NCBI GenBank assembly: GCA_038254305.1
Contig: JBBSGG010000005.1
Span: 13,044 to 77,043 of the forward strand
Direction: 5' to 3'
Source of the DNA: Pyrinomonadales bacterium
GTDB taxonomy: Bacteria > Acidobacteriota > Blastocatellia > Pyrinomonadales > Pyrinomonadaceae
Length of the DNA: 64,000 bases
The notes beneath the pieces are model-generated. The model saw nothing but the letters and a program-made list of their open reading frames with translations. It made no database searches and was not told the origin of the DNA. The position numbers and the translations under genes are program-made. Numbering within the stretch: position 1 is the first letter of the stretch; each line of letters starts with the position of its first letter. Shown one piece after another: positions 8,502 to 62,969 of this stretch.

Positions 8502-9599
8502 CTAGCCGGTCGCGTACAGTTTGGTATTTTTCGGAGCGGCAAACGAGATACCTATATCGCGGGCCGTACGCACAAGCTGGCCGTCGATCGGCACCGTCTT
8601 TATATTCAGGCACGCTTCAGAAAGCGGAGCGGTTACGATCGTTCCCGCCTGAAGTGCGACCATCTTACCGGTCTCGCCGCTGGCGAGTGCCCTCACGGCG
8701 CACGCGCCGAAGTTGGTGCCAAGCATTCGGTCGAATGCGTTCGGACTGCCGCCGCGCTGGAGATGGCCAAGTACTACGCAGCGTGATTCCTTGCCCGTCA
8801 TTTCCTCGACACGCCGACGTACATGATCACCGACGCCGCCCAATCGAAGTTCCGACGAATCCGCGTAGATCTCGCCCTTGCCAAATTCCTTCGCGCCTTC
8901 GGCTATGACAATGTTGGTAAACCGGGACCCGCTTCGTTCGCGCGCGAATACCTTTTTAACGACCGAGTCAAAAGAAAACGGGATCTCGGGTATCAATATC
9001 AGATCCGCACTACCGGCCAGCCCGGCGTGCAGGGCGATCCAGCCCGTATTGCGCCCCATCACTTCGAGGATCATAACGCGATCATGTGATGCGGCCGTTG
9101 TGTGAAGCCGATCGAGTGCTTCGGTCGCGATATCGATCGCCGTCATGAATCCGAAAGTCAGTTCCGTTGCGGCGAGATCGTTATCGATCGTCTTTGGAAC
9201 ACCGATGACCGGAAAGCCGCGTTTGTGAAACTGTTCGGCGATGGCCAGCGTGCCTTCGCCGCCGAGGACGATAAGTGCGTCGATGCCGAGTATATCCAGA
9301 TTAGCCAGCGCCTCGCCGATCGGCATTTCGGGAAACGTCGGCTTGCCGTCGACCATTTTTACGAAGCTGCCGCGGTTGCGAGTGCCGAGAATAGTGCCGC
9401 CGCGCGGCAGAATGCCGCTGACGGTTTTCGTGTCCAGCGTGACCGTCTGTGTCTCGCCCAAAATCCCCTCGAAGCTGTCTTCGATGCCGATGCACTTCAT
9501 TCCGAACTCGCCGATCGCGGTTCTCACAACCGCTCTGATCACTGCGTTTAGCCCGGGTGCGTCGCCGCCGCCGGTTAAAATGCCGATCTGCTTATACAT
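8502..9599 (-). CDS. pfkA: 6-phosphofructokinase (ATP- or PPi-dependent)
   Basis: GILTGGGDAPGLNAVIRAV, GGEGT and PKTIDNDL motifs. Confidence 0.9.
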   Translation of the reverse strand: MYKQIGILTGGGDAPGLNAVIRAVVRTAIGEFGMKCIGIEDSFEGILGETQTVTLDTKTVSGILPRGGTILGTRNRGSFVKMVDGKPTFPEMPIGEALANLDILGIDALIVLGGEGTLAIAEQFHKRGFPVIGVPKTIDNDLAATELTFGFMTAIDIATEALDRLHTTAASHDRVMILEVMGRNTGWIALHAGLAGSADLILIPEIPFSFDSVVKKVFARERSGSRFTNIVIAEGAKEFGKGEIYADSSELRLGGVGDHVRRRVEEMTGKESRCVVLGHLQRGGSPNAFDRMLGTNFGACAVRALASGETGKMVALQAGTIVTAPLSEACLNIKTVPIDGQLVRTARDIGISFAAPKNTKLYATG

Positions 9600-30601: not shown

Positions 30602-30631
30602 CGACGGTTTGCAAACGTCCGAAACGCGAAA

Positions 30632-30658
30632 AGGCGCCTGTCCATCAGGCGCCTTTTT
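30632..30658. terminator. Bidirectional intrinsic terminator (LemA on one side, microcompartment operon on the other)
   Basis: aggcgcctg-tccat-caggcgcct stem, flanked by an A-run upstream and T5 downstream. Confidence 0.85.
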
Positions 30659-30698: not shown

Positions 30699-31016
30699 TT
30701 AAAACCCGCGCGAGCTGCACATTGAGCAGTGATCACACGGCTTGCCGTTCGGCTCGAACGTGCAGGCCTTTTCTTTTTGAAAGCCCTCAAAGATCTCGTC
30801 GGCGATCGCTTCAGCAACGGAGAATTTATCCTGAGAAGGATGTTCCGGCTTTATCGTTGGAACCTGTATTTTGGTTTCCGCGATCGATCGTTCGATCCGC
30901 TCGAGGCGCGCGTTGAGTTCCGCGATGCTCGTTTCGAGCGAGTTCGGCGACGGCGACGCATCTCGAAGCAGGTTCGCGATCTTTTGAGCTATATCTTCGG
31001 GTGAGTACTGCGACAT
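30699..31016 (-). CDS. Hypothetical BMC-operon protein: N-terminal amphipathic helix, coiled coil, C-terminal Cys cluster
   Basis: The ATG at 31016 lies 1 nt after the stop of the upstream BMC-P gene. MSQYSPEDIAQKIANLLRD is followed by a Pro/Ser linker. C-terminus is C-x8-C-x2-C-x2-C (CTFEPNGKPCDHCSMC). Confidence 0.5.
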   Translation of the reverse strand: MSQYSPEDIAQKIANLLRDASPSPNSLETSIAELNARLERIERSIAETKIQVPTIKPEHPSQDKFSVAEAIADEIFEGFQKEKACTFEPNGKPCDHCSMCSSRGF

Positions 31017-31017
31017 C

Positions 31018-31299
31018 TTACTGTGCGGGAAGAAGATCGATGTAATCGACAACGCCGACGATCGCGGAATCGATGGCTGCGCCGGCTTTTCCAGTCGCCG
31101 CCGTTGATGCTGACCAGCCTTCCTGAGCGATCACGACGAGATCGCCTTCGCCCGCGCTGACCGAATCGAGAGCCAGACAGGTGTAATCCATGTCGTCGCC
31201 TTCAGGCGTTACCTGCCGGCAAAGCATGATGCGCGAGCCTTCGTAACGCTGATTCTTTTGCGTTGCGACGACATTTCCGATGACACGGGCAAGAAGCAT
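31018..31299 (-). CDS. BMC-P pentameric vertex protein (EutN/CcmL family), paralogue 3
   Basis: Trimmed to the ATG at 31299. MLLARVIGNVVATQK...AIVGVVDYIDL fits the EutN/CcmL fold. Confidence 0.85.
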   Translation of the reverse strand: MLLARVIGNVVATQKNQRYEGSRIMLCRQVTPEGDDMDYTCLALDSVSAGEGDLVVIAQEGWSASTAATGKAGAAIDSAIVGVVDYIDLLPAQ

Positions 31300-31330
31300 T
31301 GTCTTACGAACTTTGGGGCGTTGGACGTAT

Positions 31331-31612
31331 TCACCGTTCGCCGTTAAAAACGTGGCTGTCGGAATCGATGATCCCGACGATGGTGCAGTCGGTCGGCGTT
31401 TCATCACGTTTGAACGGAAACGACGCCTCCTTTCCGCGGCACCAGAAAACGAGTTCGCCCACTCCCGCTCCGACGGCGTCGAGCGCTATAGTCGGCTTCC
31501 CTTTCGGCTTAAGCTTGGCGTCAAGCGTCTGAACGAGTAGAAACGTTCTTCCCTCAAGAGCTTCGTTCTTGACCGAGGAAACTACCGTTCCGATGACGCG
31601 TGCGATCTGCAT
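31331..31612 (-). CDS. BMC-P pentameric vertex protein (EutN/CcmL family), paralogue 2
   Basis: Trimmed to the ATG at 31612. MQIARVIGTVVSSVKNEALEG...DAVGAGVGELV...TIVGIID. Confidence 0.85.
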   Translation of the reverse strand: MQIARVIGTVVSSVKNEALEGRTFLLVQTLDAKLKPKGKPTIALDAVGAGVGELVFWCRGKEASFPFKRDETPTDCTIVGIIDSDSHVFNGER

Positions 31613-31620
31613 TGTCGGAT

Positions 31621-31902
31621 CTATTTGGCTTCGTCCCGAACGAAATCGATCTCGTCGATGACGCCGATAATGGCGGCGTCGACTGGGCAATCCTTGTTTC
31701 CCTCGGCAAGCCGCGCGGACGAACCGCTGACGACGATGACCTTTTCGTGAAAACCGGCGCCGACCGTATCGACGGCCACGGTGTAGCCCGATTGATCGCT
31801 GCCGTCAAGATTGACGGGCTTAACGATCAAAAGTTTCTTGCCGTGCAGGCGTTCGTCTTTTTGAGTGGAAACGACGGTGCCGAGTATTCGTCCGATTATC
31901 AT
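31621..31902 (-). CDS. BMC-P pentameric vertex protein (EutN/CcmL family), paralogue 1
   Basis: MIIGRILGTVVSTQKDERLHGKKLLIV...DTVGAGFHEKVIV...AIIGVIDEID. Confidence 0.88.
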   Translation of the reverse strand: MIIGRILGTVVSTQKDERLHGKKLLIVKPVNLDGSDQSGYTVAVDTVGAGFHEKVIVVSGSSARLAEGNKDCPVDAAIIGVIDEIDFVRDEAK

Positions 31903-31982
31903 GGGTCAGTGATCGGTCGTCAGTGGTCAGTGGTCGGTAGTCAGAGATCAGCATTCAACTGTCCGCAGTCCACTGACAACTG

Positions 31983-32261
31983 TTATTTCATTACTATCGG
32001 CAATGCTTCGTCGACGCTGGCATGAGGACGCGGAATGACGTGTACGCTGACGAGTTCGCCGACACGGCGGGCTGCGGCGGCACCGGCATCGGTTGCGGCT
32101 TTGACGGCGGCAACGTCGCCACGGACGATCGCGGTCACAAAACCGGCGCCGATCTTTTCATAGCCAACAAGCTGCACGTTCGCGGCCTTGACCATTGCGT
32201 CGGCGGCCTCGATCATCGCGACCAGGCCCTTACATTCAACCATTCCTAATGCTTCCTGCAT
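31983..32261 (-). CDS. BMC-H hexameric shell protein (PduA/EutM/CcmK-like)
   Basis: [60 protein letters not shown] is near-canonical PduA-type sequence. Confidence 0.92.
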
Positions 32262-32348
32262 TGTTTCGAATCACTCCTCGAGAGGTTATTAAAAGGTAGA
32301 CTATACAATGTCGCCACGTTTTTAGCGAACACGTGGCGGCCGAGCTTT

Positions 32349-33146
32349 CTAATTTCGAAGTGCGTCAGCTTTGACCAGCAGCTCGATCAATTCTTCGCGC
32401 GTGAGCGAGAGTTTGGTGCCGTTTGACGGCGGCATCGTCATCGCGGTCGAGCCACATTTTATGCCGTTGTCGTGCAGGTATCCGCAGGCCTGGCAACGCG
32501 CCGTTTCGGTGAGATAACCTGCCTTTTCGCGTATATTTATAAGCTTTTCGATGGCGTCCGCCGGCAAATCGGTCGCTCCGCCCAGTGCTTTTGCTAGTAT
32601 CGCGATCTTCGCCGTATGCTCAAGCGTCTCCAGTCGGTCAAACGCCTGCCAAAGGTCCTCGCCATAGGCGACAGCACCGTGATTCGCCATCAAAAGTGCG
32701 TTGTGATGCTTTATGAACGGACGCATCGCCTGAGTCAATTCATCGGTTGACGGTGTGCCGTAATCGGTCAGTGGAACGCAGCCGAGCGTCAGGATCACTT
32801 CGGACAGAATAGGTTTGTCGATCGCCAGGCCGGCGACCGCAAATGCCGTCCCGTGGGGCGGATGTGCGTGGCAAACGGCTTTGATGTCGGGCCGCTCCTT
32901 ATAGATCAGAAGGTGCATCGACAGCTCGGATGACGCCTTTTTGTCGGTCAGCGAATTCCCGTCCATGTCCGTAACGGCGAGCGAATCTTCGGTCATGCGG
33001 CCTTTGCAAGTCATGGTCGGCGTGGCCAAAATGCGGTCTTCGCCGATCCGAACGCTGACATTCCCATCGGACGAAACGACATAGCTGCGGTCGTAAAGCA
33101 AACGGCCTATTTCGCAGATCAGTTTACGGGCTTCGAGTTCGTTCAT
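32349..33146 (-). CDS. Class II aldolase (L-fuculose/rhamnulose-phosphate aldolase-like) with C-terminal encapsulation-peptide-like extension
   Basis: Trimmed to the ATG at 33146. Zn/catalytic residues are in conserved context: SSELSMHLLIY (Glu), CHAHPPHGTAF (His-x-His) and LMANHGAVAYG (His). An extra tail of about 55 aa ends in LSLTREELIELLVKADALRN. Confidence 0.85.
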   Translation of the reverse strand: MNELEARKLICEIGRLLYDRSYVVSSDGNVSVRIGEDRILATPTMTCKGRMTEDSLAVTDMDGNSLTDKKASSELSMHLLIYKERPDIKAVCHAHPPHGTAFAVAGLAIDKPILSEVILTLGCVPLTDYGTPSTDELTQAMRPFIKHHNALLMANHGAVAYGEDLWQAFDRLETLEHTAKIAILAKALGGATDLPADAIEKLINIREKAGYLTETARCQACGYLHDNGIKCGSTAMTMPPSNGTKLSLTREELIELLVKADALRN

Positions 33147-33154
33147 AAGAAAGA

Positions 33155-33198
33155 AACCACAGATTAACACATCATTGAATGTGCATTAACCTGTGGTT
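33155..33198 (-). promoter_or_regulatory. 44-nt imperfect palindrome/hairpin immediately upstream of the aldolase start
   Basis: aaccacag ... ctgtggtt outer arms with a partly complementary interior. On the minus strand it is followed by tttctttctt, then the ATG. It could be a terminator of the upstream gene, an attenuator or an operator. Confidence 0.45.
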
Positions 33199-33219
33199 CA
33201 TTCCAAAACCGACGATTTC

Positions 33220-33522
33220 TTACCTGATGCGTTCGAACCGCGATGCTCGCGGCGGAGGCGGCGGTGCGTCAGGAACTTCCGGAACATCAAATTCTCCGGC
33301 TTCGAGTTTGTGCATCTGCAGCTGGTGGCGCAGCATTTCGTTCTCGGTCCGAAGTTGATCGTTTTCCATCCGCATCTGCTGCATCTCAGCCCTGCGACCG
33401 TTACGATTTCGGCTCGGCAGCGACGGCAGCGAGAGAGAAACAAAGAAACTGGCGAGGAAAAGCCCGGCGGCAAATGTCACAAGAAAGGGGACAAAACGCT
33501 TGAGCAAACCGATGTACATCAT
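33220..33522 (-). CDS. Hypothetical membrane-anchored coiled-coil protein with Pro-rich tail
   Basis: N-terminal TM helix (FVPFLVTFAAGLFLASFFVSL), heptad-like EMQQMRMENDQLRTENEMLRHQLQM, and PPPPP near the C-terminus. Confidence 0.45.
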   Translation of the reverse strand: MMYIGLLKRFVPFLVTFAAGLFLASFFVSLSLPSLPSRNRNGRRAEMQQMRMENDQLRTENEMLRHQLQMHKLEAGEFDVPEVPDAPPPPPRASRFERIR

Positions 33523-54789: not shown

Positions 54790-57700
54790 ATGGCCGAAGT
54801 GTCAACGGGAAAGTCCGCCCGTAAAGCCAAAACCAACGGAAGTTCCGTTAAGTCCTCAATCGGTGCGAAAAGAAATGGCAATGGCTCGGATCATATAGAT
54901 AACGTCCAGCTCCTCACTGTGCTGACGGCGGTTCGCAGCGGCGATTTCACCCACCGGCTGCCGCTTGGCGGCGAAGGCAACGCGGGGAGGATTTACGATG
55001 CCCTCAATGAGATCATCGAGCGAAACGAGCGTCTCGCTTCTGAGCTCGGCAGGATCAGCGAGGTCGTAGGAAAGGAAGGCAAGATCGCCCAGCGCGCGCG
55101 GCTTCCGCAAGCGACAGGCGGTTGGGCTTCCTGTATCGATTCGGTCAATACATTGATCACGGACCTTGCGCAGCCGACGACCGAAGTTGCGCGTGTGATC
55201 GGTGCTGTTGCCCAGGGCGACCTTTCGCAAAATTTCAATCTCGAGATCGACGACCGACCGCTCCGCGGCGAATTCCTCCGAACCGGTAAGACAGTGAACA
55301 CAATGGTGGCGCAGCTCGGTGCGTTTGCGTCAGAAGTTACGCGCGTCGCCCGCGAGGTAGGTACCGAAGGAAAGCTCGGCGGACAGGCACAGATCAAAGG
55401 CGTTTCCGGAACATGGAAGGATCTGACCGATAACGTGAACCTGATGGCTTCGAACCTAACGGGCCAGGTTCGCAACATTGCCGATGTGACCACGGCTGTT
55501 GCCAACGGCGATCTTTCGAAGAAGATAACGGTAGACGTTAAGGGTGAAATTCTCGAGCTCAAAAACACTATCAACACGATGGTCGATCAGCTCTCCTCAT
55601 TCGCATCTGAGGTGACGCGAGTAGCGCGTGAGGTGGGAACCGAAGGAAAACTCGGCGGACAGGCCGAGGTGAAAGGCGTATCGGGAACGTGGAAGGATCT
55701 GACCGACAACGTGAACCTGATGGCCAACAACCTTACCGGCCAGGTGCGAAACATTGCCGAAGTTACGACCGCTGTGGCGAATGGCGATCTATCCAAGAAA
55801 ATTACCGTTAACGTACGCGGCGAAATTCTCGAATTGAAAGACACCATCAACACGATGGTGGATCAGCTTTCGTCGTTCGCGTCGGAAGTTACGCGTGTGG
55901 CCCGCGAGGTAGGTACTGAAGGAAAGCTCGGCGGACAGGCAGAAGTAAAAGGCGTTGCCGGCGTGTGGAAGGACCTGACCGACAACGTGAACCTGATGAC
56001 CAGTAACCTTACCGGCCAAGTTCGTAATATCGCAGACGTTGCGACATCTGTAGCAAACGGCGATCTTTCGAAAAAGATCACGGTGGACGTTCGCGGCGAA
56101 ATTCTAGAACTCAAAAACACGCTGAACACAATGGTGGATCAGCTCAATTCATTCGCATCCGAAGTTACCCGCGTGGCCCGCGAGGTTGGTACCGAAGGAA
56201 AGCTCGGCGGACAGGCCGAAGTGCAGGGCGTCGGCGGCGTTTGGAAGGATCTGACCGACAACGTAAACCTTATGACCTCGAACCTGACGGCTCAGGTACG
56301 AAATATCGCCGAGGTTGCAACGTCGGTGGCAAACGGTGACCTTTCGAAAAAGATCACCGTGCAGGTGCGCGGCGAGATCCTCGAGCTGAAAGATACGCTG
56401 AACACAATGGTGGATCAGCTCAACTCATTCGCATCGGAAGTTACGCGTGTAGCCCGTGAGGTTGGAACCGAAGGAAAGCTTGGCGGACAGGCACAGGTGA
56501 AAGGCGTTTCCGGAACGTGGAAGGATCTCACCGACAACGTAAATTTCATGGCGTCGAACCTAACCGGCCAGGTGCGCAACATCGCTGCCGTTACGACAGC
56601 CGTTGCCAACGGCGATCTTTCGAAGAAGATCACCGTCGATGTGCAGGGAGAAATTCTCGAGCTTAAAGACACTATCAACACGATGGTCGATCAGTTATCG
56701 TCGTTCGCGTCCGAAGTTACGCGTGTCGCCCGTGAGGTCGGTACCGAAGGAAAACTTGGCGGCCAGGCGGTCGTGGGCGGCGTTTCGGGAACATGGAAGG
56801 ATCTCACGGATAACGTGAATTTCATGGCTTCGAACCTGACGTCTCAGGTGCGTAACATTGCCGACGTTACAACGGCCGTCGCGACGGGCGACCTTTCGAA
56901 GAAGATCACGGTCGACGTTAAGGGCGAAATTCTCGAGCTTAAAAACACCATCAATACGATGGTGGACCAATTGTCCTCATTCGCCTCCGAAGTTACGCGT
57001 GTGGCCCGTGAGGTCGGTACCGAAGGAAAGCTCGGCGGACAGGCGCAGGTAAAAGGCGTCTCCGGAACATGGAAGGATCTGACCGAGAACGTAAATTTCA
57101 TGGCGTCGAACCTAACCGGCCAGGTGCGCAACATCGCTGCCGTTACGACAGCTGTTGCCAACGGTGATCTTTCGAAAAAGATCACGGTCGATGTGCAGGG
57201 TGAAATTCTCGAGTTGAAAGACACTATCAACACGATGGTCGATCAGCTCAATTCGTTCGCATCGGAAGTGACGCGGGTAGCCCGCGAGGTTGGTACCGAA
57301 GGAAAGCTCGGCGGGCAGGCCGAGGTGAAAGGCGTCGCCGGCGTCTGGAAAGATCTCACCGACAACGTGAACTTCATGGCGTCGAACCTCACGACACAGG
57401 TGCGCGGAATCGCCCGCGTTGTGACGGCTGTGGCGAACGGCAACCTTAACAGAAAGCTCGAAGTGGAAGCTCTCGGCGAAATCGCGGAGCTTGCCGACAC
57501 CATCAACGCCATGATCGACACCCTTGCCACCTTCGCCGATCAGGTAACGACCGTGGCCCGCGAGGTCGGGATCGAAGGCGAACTTGGCGGACAGGCGAAC
57601 GTGCCCGGAGCGTCGGGAACATGGCGCGACCTTACGGATAACGTGAACCAGCTCGCCGCTAACCTGACAAACCAGGTGCGGGCGATGGCTGACGTGGCGA

Positions 57701-60672
57701 CCGCAGTTACCAAGGGCGATCTTACGCGTTCGATAACAGTGGACGCTTCCGGCGAGGTCGCGTTTTTGAAAGATAACGTGAACGAGATGATCCGCAATCT
57801 GCGCGAAACGACGCAGAAGAACACGGAACAGGATTGGCTGAAAACAAACCTTGCAAAGTTCACGCGGCTGCTGCAGGGCCAGCGTGATCTTTTGACGGTC
57901 GCACGCCTGATCCTTTCGGAGATGGCCCCGCTCGTCGAGATGCAGCACGGTGTCTTTTACATTACGGACGTCACGGACGAAGAGACCGTCCTCAAGCTGC
58001 TCGCGAGTTATGCATACCGAAAGCGTAAATCGATGTCGAGCGAATTTAAGCTCGGCGAGAGCATCGTCGGACAATGCGCGCTCGAAAAGGAAAGGATAAT
58101 TATTCACAACCCGCCGTCGGAATACGTGAAGATAAATTCGGGGCTTGGCGAAGCGCCGCCGACGAACATCGTCGTGCTTCCGGTGCTGTTCGAAGGCCAG
58201 ATCAAGGCCGTCATCGAGCTTGCGTCCTTCACGCCTTTCAACGAGATCCATTTCGCGTTTCTCGATCAGCTTACGGAATCGATCGGTATAGTCATCAATA
58301 CGATCGAAGCGAACATGCGTACCGAAGAGCTGCTCAAGCAATCGCAGTCGCTTGCGCAGGAGCTGCAGCTCGGCCAGGCCGAATTGCAGGAGACGAACAG
58401 CCGTCTCGAGCTGCAGGCGCAATCACTCAAGACCTCGGAAGAACTTCTCAAACAGCAACAGGAAGAGCTGCAGCAGACCAACCAGGAGCTTGAAGAAAAG
58501 GCAACGCTTCTCTCCGAACAAAAAAGCGAAGTCGAACAGAAGAATCGCGAGATCGAACTCGCTCGAATGGCGCTTGAGGACAAAGCGAAACAGCTTGCTC
58601 TTAGCTCCAAATACAAATCCGAGTTTCTGGCGAACATGTCGCACGAACTGCGAACCCCGCTTAACTCGATGCTTATCCTTTCAAGAATGCTTTCGGATAA
58701 TCCCGACAGCAACCTCAACGAGAAGCAGGTCGAATTCGCCGAAACCATCCACTCGTCCGGTGCCGACCTGCTCGCTTTGATAAACGAGATCCTCGATCTT
58801 TCAAAGATCGAATCGGGAACTATGGGTGTCGAGATCGGCGAGGTCCGCTTCGACGAACTCGAAGGCGATATCGAACGAACCTTCAGCCAAGTCGCCGAAG
58901 ACAAAGGCCTCCAGCTCGTCGTCGACCTCGATCAAAAGCTCCCCGAACGGTTGCAGACCGACGTCAAGCGTCTGCGGCAGGTGCTCAAGAATCTGCTTTC
59001 AAACGCGTTCAAATTCACGCAGCAGGGACGCGTCACGGTCGGCATCGGCGTAGCGGACAGCGGCTGGAGCTTTGACAACAACAGTCTTAACCGAGCTTCG
59101 TCCGTCATTGCGTTTCACGTGCATGACACAGGGATCGGAATTTCCGAGGACAAGCAGCAGCTCATTTTCGAAGCCTTTCAACAAGAAGACGGAACGACCA
59201 GCCGCAAATACGGCGGCACCGGCCTTGGGCTTTCGATCAGCCGCGAGATCGCACGCCTGCTCGGCGGCGAGATCACGCTGGAGAGCAAGCCGGGCGAAGG
59301 CAGTACATTCACATTCTACCTGCCTGAAAGCTATGAGCCGGTCAGTCTTTACCCACAGAATGATGAACGATATGACGACGGTGCTTCGAATGACGGGGCA
59401 CAGCGAAGCCTGATATCGCTCTCGCGGGAAACGGAAGAGCGCCTGCCGTCACGCGTTCAGATAATCATCAGTGACGACCGCCATCAATTAAATCCGGACG
59501 ATCTGGTGTTACTCATCATTGAGGACGACAACAGCTTTGCCCGTATTCTGATGGACATCGCGCGCGAGCAGGGATTCAAATGCCTTGTTTCGCAACACGG
59601 CGAAGATGCGCTTATGACGGCACGAAAGTTTCGTCCGAGCGCGATCTCGCTCGATCTCACGCTGCCGGGAATGCATGGATACGCCGTGCTCGACCGCCTC
59701 AAGCACGATCCGTCGACGCGACACATTCCCGTAATGATCGTATCCGTGATCGACGATCTAAAGAGCGTTCTTAAACTCGGAGCTCTGGGCCACATTCCCA
59801 AACCGACACAGCGTGAAAAGCTGGTCGACGGCGTTGTGAACCTGAAAGAGTTCGTTGAGAGAAAAGTGAAATCACTGCTTCTTGTCGAAGACGACGAAGT
59901 CCTCCAGAACAGCATCATCGAGTTGCTTCACGGCCCTGACATATCCGTTACGCCGGCGAGCACCGGGAAGGAAGCTCTCGCCCTGCTCGAAGGCGCTCGG
60001 TTCGACTGTGCAATTGTCGATCTCATGCTTCCCGACATGCAGTGGTCGGAATTGATCGGCAAGATCAAACAGGATGCCGGCTTTCCGGAACTGCCCGTTA
60101 TCGTCCACACCGGCAAAGATCTTTCGAAACGCGAGACGTCGAAGATCAAGAAACTGGCCGAGACGATCATTATAAAGGACGCCGATTCGCTCGAGCGTCT
60201 TGTCGATGAGACCGCGCTGTTTCTCCATCGCGACGTTGCCGATCTTAGCGACGCGCAAAAGAACATGATGAAGCGGGCAAATGTCACCGATCCGCGGCTG
60301 CACGGCAAAAAGGTGCTGATCGTAGACGACGACATCAGGAACATTTTCGCTTTGACCAGTGCGCTCGAACGACAGCAAATGGTGGTGGTTTACGCCGAGA
60401 ACGGCAAGGACGGCATCGATATGCTGAGTAAGACGCCCGGCATCGACGGCGTCCTGATGGACATCATGATGCCCGAGATGGACGGTTTCGAAGCAATGCG
60501 TGCGATCCGTCAGATCTCGAAATTCAAGGGCGTTCCGATCATCGCGGTCACCGCAAAAGCGATGAAGGGCGATCGGCAAAAATGCCTCGAAGCCGGAGCG
60601 TCCGATTACATTACAAAGCCTGTCGATACCGAACAGCTGCTTTCCCTTCTGCGGATTTGGCTCGATAGATAA
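54790..60672 (+). CDS. Soluble giant hybrid sensor histidine kinase: poly-HAMP array, GAF, coiled coil, HisKA/HATPase and three receiver domains
   Basis: AGGAG RBS. Ten 92-aa di-HAMP modules, then a GAF-like segment, H-box [10 protein letters not shown] (His codon at 58642-58644) and G-box GGTGLGLSI. Three REC domains: LIIEDD...[14 protein letters not shown]...VDLMLPD, and LIVDDD...[11 protein letters not shown]...TAKAMKGD. No TM segment seen. Confidence 0.95.
55324..57531 (+). repeat. Eight tandem, in-frame, near-identical 276-bp repeats (di-HAMP modules); diverged copies flank at 55033-55323 and 57532-57807
   Basis: Each unit starts with the [21 protein letters not shown] codons, at 55324, 55600, 55876, 56152, 56428, 56704, 56980 and 57256. 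That is an exact 276-nt period. Confidence 0.95.
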
Positions 60673-60692: not shown

Positions 60693-62969
60693 ATGAGCGA
60701 GGGGCCGAAAACCAAAATCCTTCTTGTCGATGATCGTCCCGAGAACCTTCTGGTAATGCGAAGCGTCCTCGGTGACGACAAGTACGATCTCATCTGCGTT
60801 TCCTCCGGCCGCGAAGCTCTAAAGGCTCTGCTCAACCATGAGGTCGCGTTGATCTTGCTCGATGTCCAAATGCCCGGCTTGAATGGCTTCGAACTCGCCG
60901 AACTCATTCGTGAACGCGAGTCCACACAGAACACTCCGATCATTTTTGTATCTGCCGAGAGCGTCGACGAACATTATATCTTTCAGGGTTATTCGCTCGG
61001 AGCGGTAGATTATCTGACCAAACCGGTCAACCCTGAGATACTCAAATCGAAGGTCGGATTTTTCGCCCGCCTTTTTCAGCAAAACCAGGAGATCAAACGC
61101 CAGGCCGGATTGCTTGAAGATGCAAATACGCGGCTCGATCAGCTCAACGGCGAGCTTGAGATACGCGTTCGGACGCGAACCGCGGAGCTAGAGGCCAGCA
61201 ATATCAAACTCGCAGAGCAGGTCGAATCGCGAAAGCTGTCCGAAGCACGGCTTGCGATCGAGCATTCTATAACACGGTCGCTCGCCCACGCCGAAGGTAT
61301 CGAGAGTGCCGCAAACGAGATCCTCGATGCATTTTGGCGCCATCTGAATTCTGATTATTCAGCGTTTTGGATACTCAACGATGCCGGGACGGAACTCGTC
61401 TGCGTTGGTGCCCGCTCGAACGACAAGTCGGGCTTGCTGCAGCCGCTCGTAAACGCGTCGCTCACTTCGAACTTTCGCCGCGGAGTTGGTCTTCCCGGGC
61501 ACGTCTGGAATGAGAACGGAACCATCTGGCACTCCGGCACCTACGAAGGTGAGCAATACCCGGGTGCTGCTATTGCAACGGCGGCCCGAGTTCACACGGC
61601 GGTTGGTTTCCCAATAATGATCGGTGACGAGTTTTTCGGTGTTATCGAGCTTTTCACGAGAAAGCATCTAGGCGATAAGCCAAGTCTTTTAAATATGTTT
61701 TTCGCGATCGGCAGCGAGATCGGCCAGTTCGTGCGCCGCAAACGCATCGAAGGGGAACGCAAAAATCTGCTCCAGCGTGAAAAGGCGCTCCGTCGGCAAG
61801 CTGAAAAAGCAAACCGCATGAAGGACGAATTTCTAGCGACCGTCTCGCACGAACTGCGGACACCTTTGAATTCCATCCTTGGTTGGGGACAGATACTCAA
61901 TACCGGCGGACTGTCTGACGATGAACAGAGTAACGCTCTCAACGCCATCTTCCGCAACGCGAAATCGCAATCGCAGCTGATCGACGACCTCCTCGATACG
62001 TCTCGACTGATCGGCGGAAATGTTCATCTCGAATTGTCGCCGACGGACATAATTCCCCTTATCGAAGCCGCGATCGAGGTAGTACGTCCGGCAGCCGGAG
62101 CGAAAAATATAAAGCTCTCGGCCAAGTATCTTTCAACTTTTTCGACGATCACGTGCGATTCGCAGCGGCTGCAGCAGATGGTTTGGAACCTACTGACGAA
62201 TGCGGTGAAGTTCACATCGAGCGGCGGCGAGGTGGGTGTTGTGTTCGCACGGTCTTCGCACGGTGCGGAGATCGTGGTGACGGACACCGGCTGTGGAATC
62301 GCACCAGAATTCGTACCGCACGTGTTCGATCGTTTTCGCCAGGCTGATAGCTCAAGCACGCGAACCCACGACGGGCTCGGCCTTGGGCTTGCGATCGTGC
62401 GCCATCTCGCGGAGCTGCACGGCGGAACCGTTTCGGTCACAAGCGACGGGCTCGGTCACGGTTCTACGTTTACGATCTCGATGCCGGCGGCGGCGCTTGC
62501 GGCAGCCGTGCCGGAGCAAATGCCGATGATGACGACAGCCAGTCCAAACAGTGCAACGTCCGCGAACGGCCATCGACTGGACGGTATAAAGGTATTGATC
62601 GTCGACGATGACCTTGACGCCGTCGCGATGCTGAAGTTTGCCCTAAATAGTTCCGGTGCGGATGTCCGAACTTCCGGATCCGTGCCCGAAGCCTTTGAAT
62701 CAATATCTCAAACTATCCCCGACGTATTGCTTGCCGATATCAACATGCCGGGCCAGGACGGCTATTCCCTCATCCGTGAACTTCGCTCGCGAACAACCGA
62801 AGACGGTGCGGATATTCCAGCTATAGCGTTGACCGCGATGGCACGAACCGAAGACAGTGAACTGGCTCTCGCGTCGGGTTTTCAGATGCACATTTCAAAG
62901 CCCGTGAATATTGATGAGATTGCTCACGCCGTCGCCCGTCTTGCAGGCAAAAATGGCCATGATGCCTGA
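60693..62969 (+). CDS. Hybrid histidine kinase: REC, coiled coil, GAF, HisKA/HATPase, REC
   Basis: N-terminal REC (LLVDDRPENL...LLDVQMPGLNG), H-box [11 protein letters not shown]-box DGLGLGLAI, and C-terminal REC (LIVDDD...LADINMPGQDG...ISKP). Confidence 0.9.
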   Translation: MSEGPKTKILLVDDRPENLLVMRSVLGDDKYDLICVSSGREALKALLNHEVALILLDVQMPGLNGFELAELIRERESTQNTPIIFVSAESVDEHYIFQGYSLGAVDYLTKPVNPEILKSKVGFFARLFQQNQEIKRQAGLLEDANTRLDQLNGELEIRVRTRTAELEASNIKLAEQVESRKLSEARLAIEHSITRSLAHAEGIESAANEILDAFWRHLNSDYSAFWILNDAGTELVCVGARSNDKSGLLQPLVNASLTSNFRRGVGLPGHVWNENGTIWHSGTYEGEQYPGAAIATAARVHTAVGFPIMIGDEFFGVIELFTRKHLGDKPSLLNMFFAIGSEIGQFVRRKRIEGERKNLLQREKALRRQAEKANRMKDEFLATVSHELRTPLNSILGWGQILNTGGLSDDEQSNALNAIFRNAKSQSQLIDDLLDTSRLIGGNVHLELSPTDIIPLIEAAIEVVRPAAGAKNIKLSAKYLSTFSTITCDSQRLQQMVWNLLTNAVKFTSSGGEVGVVFARSSHGAEIVVTDTGCGIAPEFVPHVFDRFRQADSSSTRTHDGLGLGLAIVRHLAELHGGTVSVTSDGLGHGSTFTISMPAAALAAAVPEQMPMMTTASPNSATSANGHRLDGIKVLIVDDDLDAVAMLKFALNSSGADVRTSGSVPEAFESISQTIPDVLLADINMPGQDGYSLIRELRSRTTEDGADIPAIALTAMARTEDSELALASGFQMHISKPVNIDEIAHAVARLAGKNGHDA

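Follow-up and report, generated by a model that had tools for sequence, protein, structure and literature searches.

A compact six-gene microcompartment operon of a Pyrinomonadales bacterium probably represents an ACI main locus

A 64,000-nucleotide stretch of a Pyrinomonadales bacterium genome (assembly GCA_038254305.1, contig JBBSGG010000005.1, positions 13,044 to 77,043; hereafter the window) contains a short bacterial microcompartment (BMC) operon that encodes an aldolase-family enzyme, a BMC-H shell protein, three BMC-P shell proteins and a small cysteine-rich protein (the Cys protein). The source belongs to the Pyrinomonadaceae, which we take to be part of Acidobacteria Subdivision 4. 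An aldehyde-oxidising core does not accompany these genes, and the locus raises the question of what kind of organelle it could serve. The initial annotation, made from the sequence alone, offered two answers: a satellite of a distant main locus, reminiscent of the fucose/rhamnose organelle of Planctomycetes and Verrucomicrobia (PVM and PVM-like types), or a minimal organelle holding only the aldolase. The operon is better read as the main locus of an ACI-type microcompartment, in a compact form typical of Pyrinomonadaceae and Blastocatellia. The probability of this reading was estimated at roughly 85%.

The ACI type was taken as defined in the locus catalogue of Sutter, Melnicki, Schulz, Woyke & Kerfeld (2021, Nat Commun 12:3809, Supplementary Data 2, PMC8217296). 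According to its ACI entry, the type comprises 125 loci, exclusively from Acidobacteria and mainly from Subdivisions 4 and 6. The main locus is given there as encoding a PF00596 aldolase whose C-terminus bears an encapsulation peptide (EP), a hydroxyacid dehydrogenase, one or more BMC-H and a BMC-P triplet, together with a short protein of unknown family that has an N-terminal EP and conserved C-terminal cysteines. The ACI aldehyde dehydrogenase (AldDh), with an EP near its C-terminus, is consistently placed on a satellite locus. ACI aldolases have a separate hidden Markov model (HMMaldol_5_aci2) and are placed nearest to those of the HO and MIC3 types (PMC8217296).

The window matched this entry in its host, tailed aldolase, BMC-P triplet, BMC-H, small Cys protein and lack of an AldDh, so the puzzle posed by the initial annotation has a published answer. 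The closest 80 related loci were nearly all acidobacterial, and the single record labelled ‘Leptolyngbya’ shared a 4.8-kb block, 99.98% identical, with an acidobacterial contig. The aldolase was a PF00596 protein ending in a linker and a conserved terminal helix that is a predicted EP. The BMC-H belonged to PF00936 and had the KAA lysine and PRPH motifs. Three adjacent PF03319 genes, 33–37% identical to one another and each 70–95% conserved across species, formed the triplet. The 105-aa small protein had an N-terminal amphipathic helix and invariant C85, C94, C97 and C100. As in the published ACI main locus, AldDh, phosphotransacylase (PTAC) and BMC-T were all missing from the block.

The six co-oriented genes extended on the minus strand from 33146 to 30699 and were separated by gaps of 87, 80, 8, 31 and 1 nt (Table 1). 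This gene content had been proposed from the letters alone and held up: five products had Pfam families, and the gene calls of assembly GCA_051001635.1 agreed exactly (265, 92, 93, 93, 93 and 105 aa). Several starts were moved. The aldolase starts at the ATG at 33146 and not at the GTG at 33170, which sits within the right arm of the upstream hairpin; the starts of BMC-P2, BMC-P3 and the Cys protein were corrected to 31612, 31299 and 31016. Both proposed boundaries were recovered with slightly shifted extents, the upstream hairpin by RNA folding (formerly 33155–33198) and the downstream bidirectional terminator (formerly 30632–30658), which is common to the operon and the convergent LemA gene.

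Table 1. Features of the microcompartment locus (positions in the window; aa, amino acids)
Feature	Position	Strand	Description	Evidence
Aldolase	32349..33146	-	Class II (metal-dependent) aldolase-family enzyme, 265 aa	PF00596, E 2e-48
Cys motif in aldolase tail	32454..32495	-	aa 218-231, R-C-Q-x-C-G-Y-L-H-x5-C	Conserved in first 80 loci
Predicted EP helix of aldolase	32361..32411	-	aa ~246-262, SLTREELIELLVKADAL	Conservation and AlphaFold2
BMC-H	31983..32261	-	Canonical PduA/EutM-type hexamer, 92 aa	PF00936, E 1e-30
BMC-P1	31621..31902	-	Pentameric vertex protein, paralogue 1, 93 aa	PF03319, E 1e-30
BMC-P2	31331..31612	-	Paralogue 2, 93 aa	PF03319, E 3e-29
BMC-P3	31018..31299	-	Paralogue 3, most divergent of three, 93 aa	PF03319, E 1e-19
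Cys protein	30699..31016	-	ACI small Cys protein, 105 aa	No Pfam or NCBIfam family
RNA hairpin	33154..33199	-	Core arms CCACAGGUUAAU and GUUAAUCUGUGG, stem extending into spacer	Fold and conservation
orf100	33220..33522	-	100 aa, N-terminal transmembrane segment, then coiled-coil and Pro-rich region	No Pfam family
Bidirectional intrinsic terminator	30628..30658	.	13-bp stem, 7 GC pairs	Flanking A-run and T-run

Pfam scans of the window covered essentially every open reading frame (ORF) of ~95 aa or more, and precomputed hits were added. None of the ORFs scanned matched PF00171, PF06130, PF00389 or PF02826. The aldehyde-oxidising core was indeed missing, as the initial annotation had stated, with no AldDh, PTAC, BMC-T or regulator in the 64 kb, and a tblastn search with the shell proteins revealed no additional BMC-H or BMC-P there. 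The other ORFs scanned were housekeeping and signalling genes only; the housekeeping nature of the flanks had been noted before, and the LemA and ruvA flanks were kept in relatives.

Relatives of the aldolase were collected by scanning one genome per species. At least 456 were found, and the best 80 were taken as loci L001–L080. A second sample of 22 long metagenomic loci, with aldolases ~70% identical, was reached through divergent ‘long-form’ Cys proteins; the two sets together make up the about 100 related loci referred to below. The best 80 aldolases were 77–83% identical to that of the window and nearly all were labelled Acidobacteriota, mostly Pyrinomonadaceae, Blastocatellia or Chloracidobacterium. 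The syntenic order in this set was ruvB, CPBP and ruvA on the opposite strand; orf100, aldolase, BMC-H, BMC-P1, BMC-P2, BMC-P3 and Cys protein; then LemA, an ORF and TPM, again on the opposite strand. The 22 long-form loci contained the same compact operon between the same ruvA and LemA flanks. Because the six-gene block and its flanks were syntenic in about 100 loci of different species, the arrangement is not due to chance. The operon proteins were 75–99% conserved across about 100 species; intergenic and linker sequences varied. The compact six-gene form appears to be the norm in the sampled lineages.

Several observations weigh against the ACI assignment. The 2-hydroxyacid dehydrogenase (PF00389/PF02826) of the published main locus was absent from the window ORFs scanned, and it was absent from the operon and immediate flanks in the about 100 related loci. 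Two further proteins of unknown family in the ACI consensus, one with three conserved His, were likewise absent from the window and from the flanks of those loci. The enzyme met no NCBIfam equivalog cutoff; its best match was the OtnC-type decarboxylase family, at 143 bits against a cutoff of 250. Since no equivalog cutoff was met, and since its neighbours were OtnC and unnamed ‘Aldolase’ entries and not FucA, the substrate and the reaction class of the ACI enzyme (aldolase, decarboxylase or epimerase) are ones that we infer, and the ‘aldolase’ label of the signature enzyme is insecure. The terminal helix of this enzyme had a modest hydrophobic moment. For this genome, a satellite AldDh is an expectation taken from the literature, and the searchable literature turned up no experimental work on ACI. 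The missing hydroxyacid dehydrogenase was treated as variable content and not as disqualifying, because the shell set, aldolase and Cys protein all match.

The 265-aa aldolase corresponds to the signature cargo enzyme of ACI microcompartments, and it had more than 3,200 homologues. The closest solved structures (E 5e-29) were 6VOQ and 6VOP, both deposited under the name ‘Aldolase’, and the top curated-family match, below its cutoff, was OtnC, a 3-oxo-tetronate 4-phosphate decarboxylase. The enzyme was 32% identical to E. coli FucA (1FUA) and shares its fold family. FucA residues E73, H92, H94 and H155, which we take to be the catalytic Glu and the Zn ligands, aligned with E74, H93, H95 and H156, and the latter four were invariant in an alignment of 40 homologues. 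FucA differs in having no 55-aa tail, Cys motif or EP, and the enzyme in the window fell under every curated FucA equivalog cutoff.

The aldolase tail consisted of three parts: the Cys motif (aa 218–231), a variable linker and the conserved terminal helix (aa ~246–262). The Cys motif was placed between the catalytic domain and the linker. C218, C221 and C231 were invariant in the homologue alignment and H225 was at least 90% conserved, and the motif is a possible small metal-binding site. The linker (aa ~232–245) varied in both length and sequence, and the terminal-helix consensus NGxK(V/I)SFTREELIELLSQAAKL was kept. In the AlphaFold2 (AF2) model the linker had a predicted local distance difference test score (pLDDT) of ~35 and was followed by a helix at residues 250–262 with a pLDDT of ~80. 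The model was poor overall (pLDDT 58), weak for the core because the sequence alignment was shallow, and was used solely for the secondary structure of the tail. The suggestion that the tail carries an EP, made from the letters, is supported by a variable linker ahead of a conserved terminal helix and by the C-terminal EP of the catalogue.

The BMC-H scored 139.6 bits against the NCBIfam EutM model (cutoff 133), was ~70% identical to both the HO-5815 hexamer and PduA, and was 89–99% identical among related loci. The nearest solved structures to BMC-P1 were CcmL and the HO BMC-P in 5V74; BMC-P2 and BMC-P3 both matched 4I7A and 5V74. BMC-P1 was 33–37% identical to the other two, BMC-P2 was 35–37% identical to its paralogues and 73–90% to its orthologues, and BMC-P3 was 33–35% identical to its paralogues. 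Identities of 33–37% among paralogues, against 70–95% to orthologues, indicate that the triplication is ancient, which would fit a clade-mixed triplet. What had looked like an inverted 1:3 ratio of hexamer to pentamer genes is the BMC-P triplet already described, a feature of the ACI, HO and FRAG locus types in the catalogue (PMC8217296). The HO microcompartment of Haliangium ochraceum, a model shell (5V74, 5DJB), thus shares the triplet, and its aldolase is class II, in the type that the catalogue entry places nearest the ACI aldolase. HO loci differ in having an AldDh and three BMC-T, no small Cys protein and a myxobacterial host.

The Cys protein had a 100% identical counterpart, annotated as hypothetical, in a Pyrinomonadaceae metagenome-assembled genome (GCA_051001635.1), and 1,513 homologues in all. 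It began with an amphipathic, EP-like helix (aa 6–20, consensus LAEKIARLLE), which had the highest hydrophobic moment within the protein. A second helix (24–47) and a variable linker followed. The C-terminal domain of ~48 aa contained invariant H59, C85, C94, H96, C97 and C100 in the pattern C-x8-C-x-H-C-x2-C, which may indicate a Zn or Fe-S site. Its AF2 model was weak (pLDDT 69, predicted template-modelling score 0.26, Cys tail ~55). We presume that the protein is encapsulated and binds a metal or an Fe-S cluster, and the Cys motif of the aldolase tail, taken with this Cys4His2 domain, hints at a metal or Fe-S theme common to both cargo proteins. The published ACI protein is described in the catalogue entry as ‘~80 aa, three Cys’, in contrast to the 105 aa, four invariant Cys and two invariant His found here. 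The family is narrow: a profile search of the Cys domain against 1.84 billion proteins returned only 191 representatives, and the 150 listed were all 31–212 aa long. The candidate identity of the Cys domain with the ‘~50 aa domain after EP’ of ACI AldDhs was rejected, as no protein of AldDh length was among those 150 matches.

The RNA hairpin upstream of the aldolase was an imperfect palindrome with a predicted fold of -26.6 kcal/mol (z = -5.9 against shuffled sequences). Of 81 sequences, 70 had it, in a single copy per locus and at all times between orf100 and the following gene; homologous positions lay in L001–L080 and L167. The right arm (GUUAAUCUGUGG) was nearly invariant, and the left arm showed wobble-compatible and compensatory variation. 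The spacer was 8–47 nt long, variable in sequence, and lengthened the stem. When the alignment was anchored on the arms, 93.9% of cells were paired, against 33–43% in slid controls. One-sided changes were nearly all G.U or U.G wobbles, which pair only on the operon-sense strand, and five AU-to-GC double changes were counted. A U-rich tract (33147–33153 and onward) followed the hairpin, and the aldolase start codon lay 8–14 nt downstream. No other exact copy occurred in the 64 kb and no Rfam family was matched. With no other exact copy in the window, one pair per locus and no Rfam family, a repetitive extragenic palindromic (REP)-like repeat, a regulon operator and a known RNA were rejected as identities for the hairpin. 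A dimeric DNA operator is also unlikely, because the spacing is variable (8–47 nt) and the wobble-type variation is confined to one strand. The hairpin is a candidate attenuator, intrinsic terminator, or 5′ stability or processing element.

The gene directly upstream, orf100, was co-oriented with the operon and syntenic there in 70 of the first 80 loci, with conservation confined to the N-terminal transmembrane segment. Where present, it always lay between Rex or ruvA and the hairpin; it was missing from the long-form loci, in most of which an ORF of the size of Rex immediately preceded the aldolase. The hairpin is a candidate attenuator specific to the clade that has orf100. The orf100 stop was only ~20 nt upstream of the hairpin, which leaves little room for a promoter before it, and transcription of the operon therefore probably passes through this terminator-like element. 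orf100 is probably co-transcribed with the operon and is no evident BMC component; it may be a truncated TonB-family protein. It was rejected as the ‘three-His’ ACI protein since it has no conserved His. In 24 relatives, an ORF with a TonB_C domain was found after orf100, downstream of the hairpin.

In 37 of the first 80 loci, the operon strand carried a gene for a Rex-type redox-sensing repressor (PF06971 Put_DNA-bind_N and PF02629 CoA_binding) in the gap that separates ruvA from orf100. In the long-form set, an ORF of 236–278 aa stood directly before the aldolase in most of the 22 loci; Rex was confirmed by Pfam for L127 (6962–7798), and L167 had precomputed Rex hits (8869–9546). The 64-kb window contained no Rex gene, and no Rex box was found in the window at three or fewer mismatches. 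The linkage suggests redox (NADH/NAD+) control of ACI expression in relatives. The ACI catalogue entry does not describe a Cys motif in the aldolase tail, an upstream RNA hairpin or a link to Rex. Relative to the catalogue, the covarying hairpin with its U-tract, the Rex linkage in relatives and the aldolase tail Cys motif would be modest new details.

Unrelated genes were inserted in the operons of many relatives (L001–L080) at varying junctions (aldolase|BMC-H, BMC-P1|BMC-P2, BMC-P3|Cys protein and orf100|aldolase); the window had none. The inserted families were DoxX, TPR/CarboxypepD_reg, a 23S_rRNA_IVP four-helix bundle, Band_7/SPFH, DUF2059, Methyltransf_24, Uma2 endonuclease and TonB_C. 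As all belong to unrelated families, they were rejected as candidate cargo. In the long-form loci, a conserved downstream block of ORFs of ~146, 325, 160, 690 and 490 aa was considered as a hydroxyacid dehydrogenase with an AldDh and rejected, since Pfam identified it as the dcw cluster (mraZ, mraW, ftsL, PBP, murE, mraY and murD).

The record labelled ‘Leptolyngbya sp. 7M’ (L168; CP070897.1, 2283661–2304461) and L167 (Logan SRR24079484) shared a 4,815-bp block, 99.98% identical, that spanned the ACI operon through LemA. The context in L167 was acidobacterial. The L168 record is a 6.99-Mb chromosome labelled as a cyanobacterium, and its block was flanked by cyanobacterial genes such as HetR. 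The shared block most likely reflects a chimeric assembly of a non-axenic culture; otherwise it would be a very recent transfer.

Two hybrid histidine kinases, both unrelated to the BMC locus, adjoined one another on the plus strand of the window. The first (54790–60672) was 1,960 aa long with ~9–10 tandem HAMP domains, GAF, HisKA/HATPase and three receiver domains; the second (60693–62969) had receiver, GAF and kinase domains.

Other readings would explain parts of this evidence. A self-sufficient organelle, in which the shell holds the aldolase and the Cys protein alone and the genome has neither an AldDh nor a usual metabolosome, would account for the clean bounds of the six-gene unit, between the hairpin upstream and the terminator downstream, and for the lack of AldDh, PTAC and hydroxyacid dehydrogenase in the 64 kb and within ~10 kb of the operon in about 100 loci. 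A satellite arrangement, however, predicts exactly this absence of AldDh from the neighbourhood, and Subdivision 4, presumably the group of the Pyrinomonadaceae, is one of the two main ACI-bearing groups; such an organelle, which the literature does not support, was judged improbable. The locus could also be what is left of a larger ACI locus: genes would have been lost, the hydroxyacid dehydrogenase among them, and a functional organelle would no longer be made. Some components of the published ACI main locus are in fact missing, and the operons of relatives are repeatedly interrupted by DoxX, TPR, 23S_rRNA_IVP, Band_7, Uma2 and methyltransferase genes. Yet the six genes are all intact with 75–99% protein conservation over about 100 species, the catalytic residues, EP and Cys/His ligands are invariant, and the upstream hairpin shows wobble-compatible and compensatory changes. 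Intact conserved genes, invariant residues and compensatory changes in the hairpin point to purifying selection on a working unit, which makes decay very unlikely.

The resemblance to the PVM and PVM-like fucose/rhamnose organelle, on which the initial annotation drew, comes from a PF00596 signature aldolase and a BMC-P triplet, both common to PVM loci, and in both systems an aldehyde would plausibly be made from a sugar phosphate. On that reading the block would be a satellite, with AldDh, PTAC, kinase and BMC-T on a main locus elsewhere. The PVM main locus, however, includes an AldDh, phosphotransacylase and kinase core, has an aldolase of another, PvmN-like clade and lacks the Cys protein, and no PF00171 or PF06130 match was found in the window. 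A small Cys protein bearing an N-terminal EP is specific to ACI. PVM hosts are Planctomycetes, Verrucomicrobia, gut bacteria and others; the host here is acidobacterial, and nearly all of the related loci are labelled Acidobacteriota. The block also has the full shell set (BMC-H and triplet) and is therefore a main locus by definition. The Acidobacteria-specific ACI type replaces the PVM framing, and a PVM satellite was given only a marginal chance. The proposed satellite relation was inverted, since the catalogue puts the AldDh on the satellite (PMC8217296).

For the ACI main locus, a mechanism can be proposed. A small shell that lacks BMC-T would have its facets tiled by BMC-H hexamers and its vertices closed by BMC-P pentamers. 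A C-terminal peptide on the aldolase and an N-terminal one on the Cys protein would bring these two proteins into the lumen. There the aldolase would split a ketose-1-phosphate, similar to fuculose- or rhamnulose-1-phosphate, into dihydroxyacetone phosphate and an aldehyde, and the aldehyde would be consumed by an EP-bearing AldDh that, on the literature, a satellite locus in another part of the genome would encode. A metal or Fe-S centre would be bound by the Cys4His2 domain, and perhaps also by the Cys motif of the aldolase tail, and would serve in structure, scaffolding or redox chemistry. Transcription would come from upstream and read through orf100, and in many relatives the Rex gene as well, into the operon, and the hairpin and U-tract would modulate it by attenuation or termination.

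A more far-reaching version holds that the ACI of Pyrinomonadaceae is a true minimal system. The Cys3(His) motif of the aldolase tail and the Cys4His2 domain of the small protein would jointly bind a metal or Fe-S centre, as a nucleation point or redox switch of the cargo core, and the hairpin would be a new factor-dependent attenuator tied to the redox state, with Rex upstream in about half of the relatives. The compartment might then work without the AldDh, PTAC and alcohol dehydrogenase core. This version is speculative, and we regard it as unlikely.

As a routine member of the ACI type, the locus leaves the picture of ACI unchanged. ACI microcompartments occur in a phylum that is able to dominate soil communities, and the locus offers leads for work on them: a minimal conserved unit of six genes in which a hydroxyacid dehydrogenase is not universal, a conserved 5′ RNA hairpin, a probable Rex redox link in many species, and Cys-rich motifs in both presumed encapsulated proteins that point to a metal or Fe-S component.

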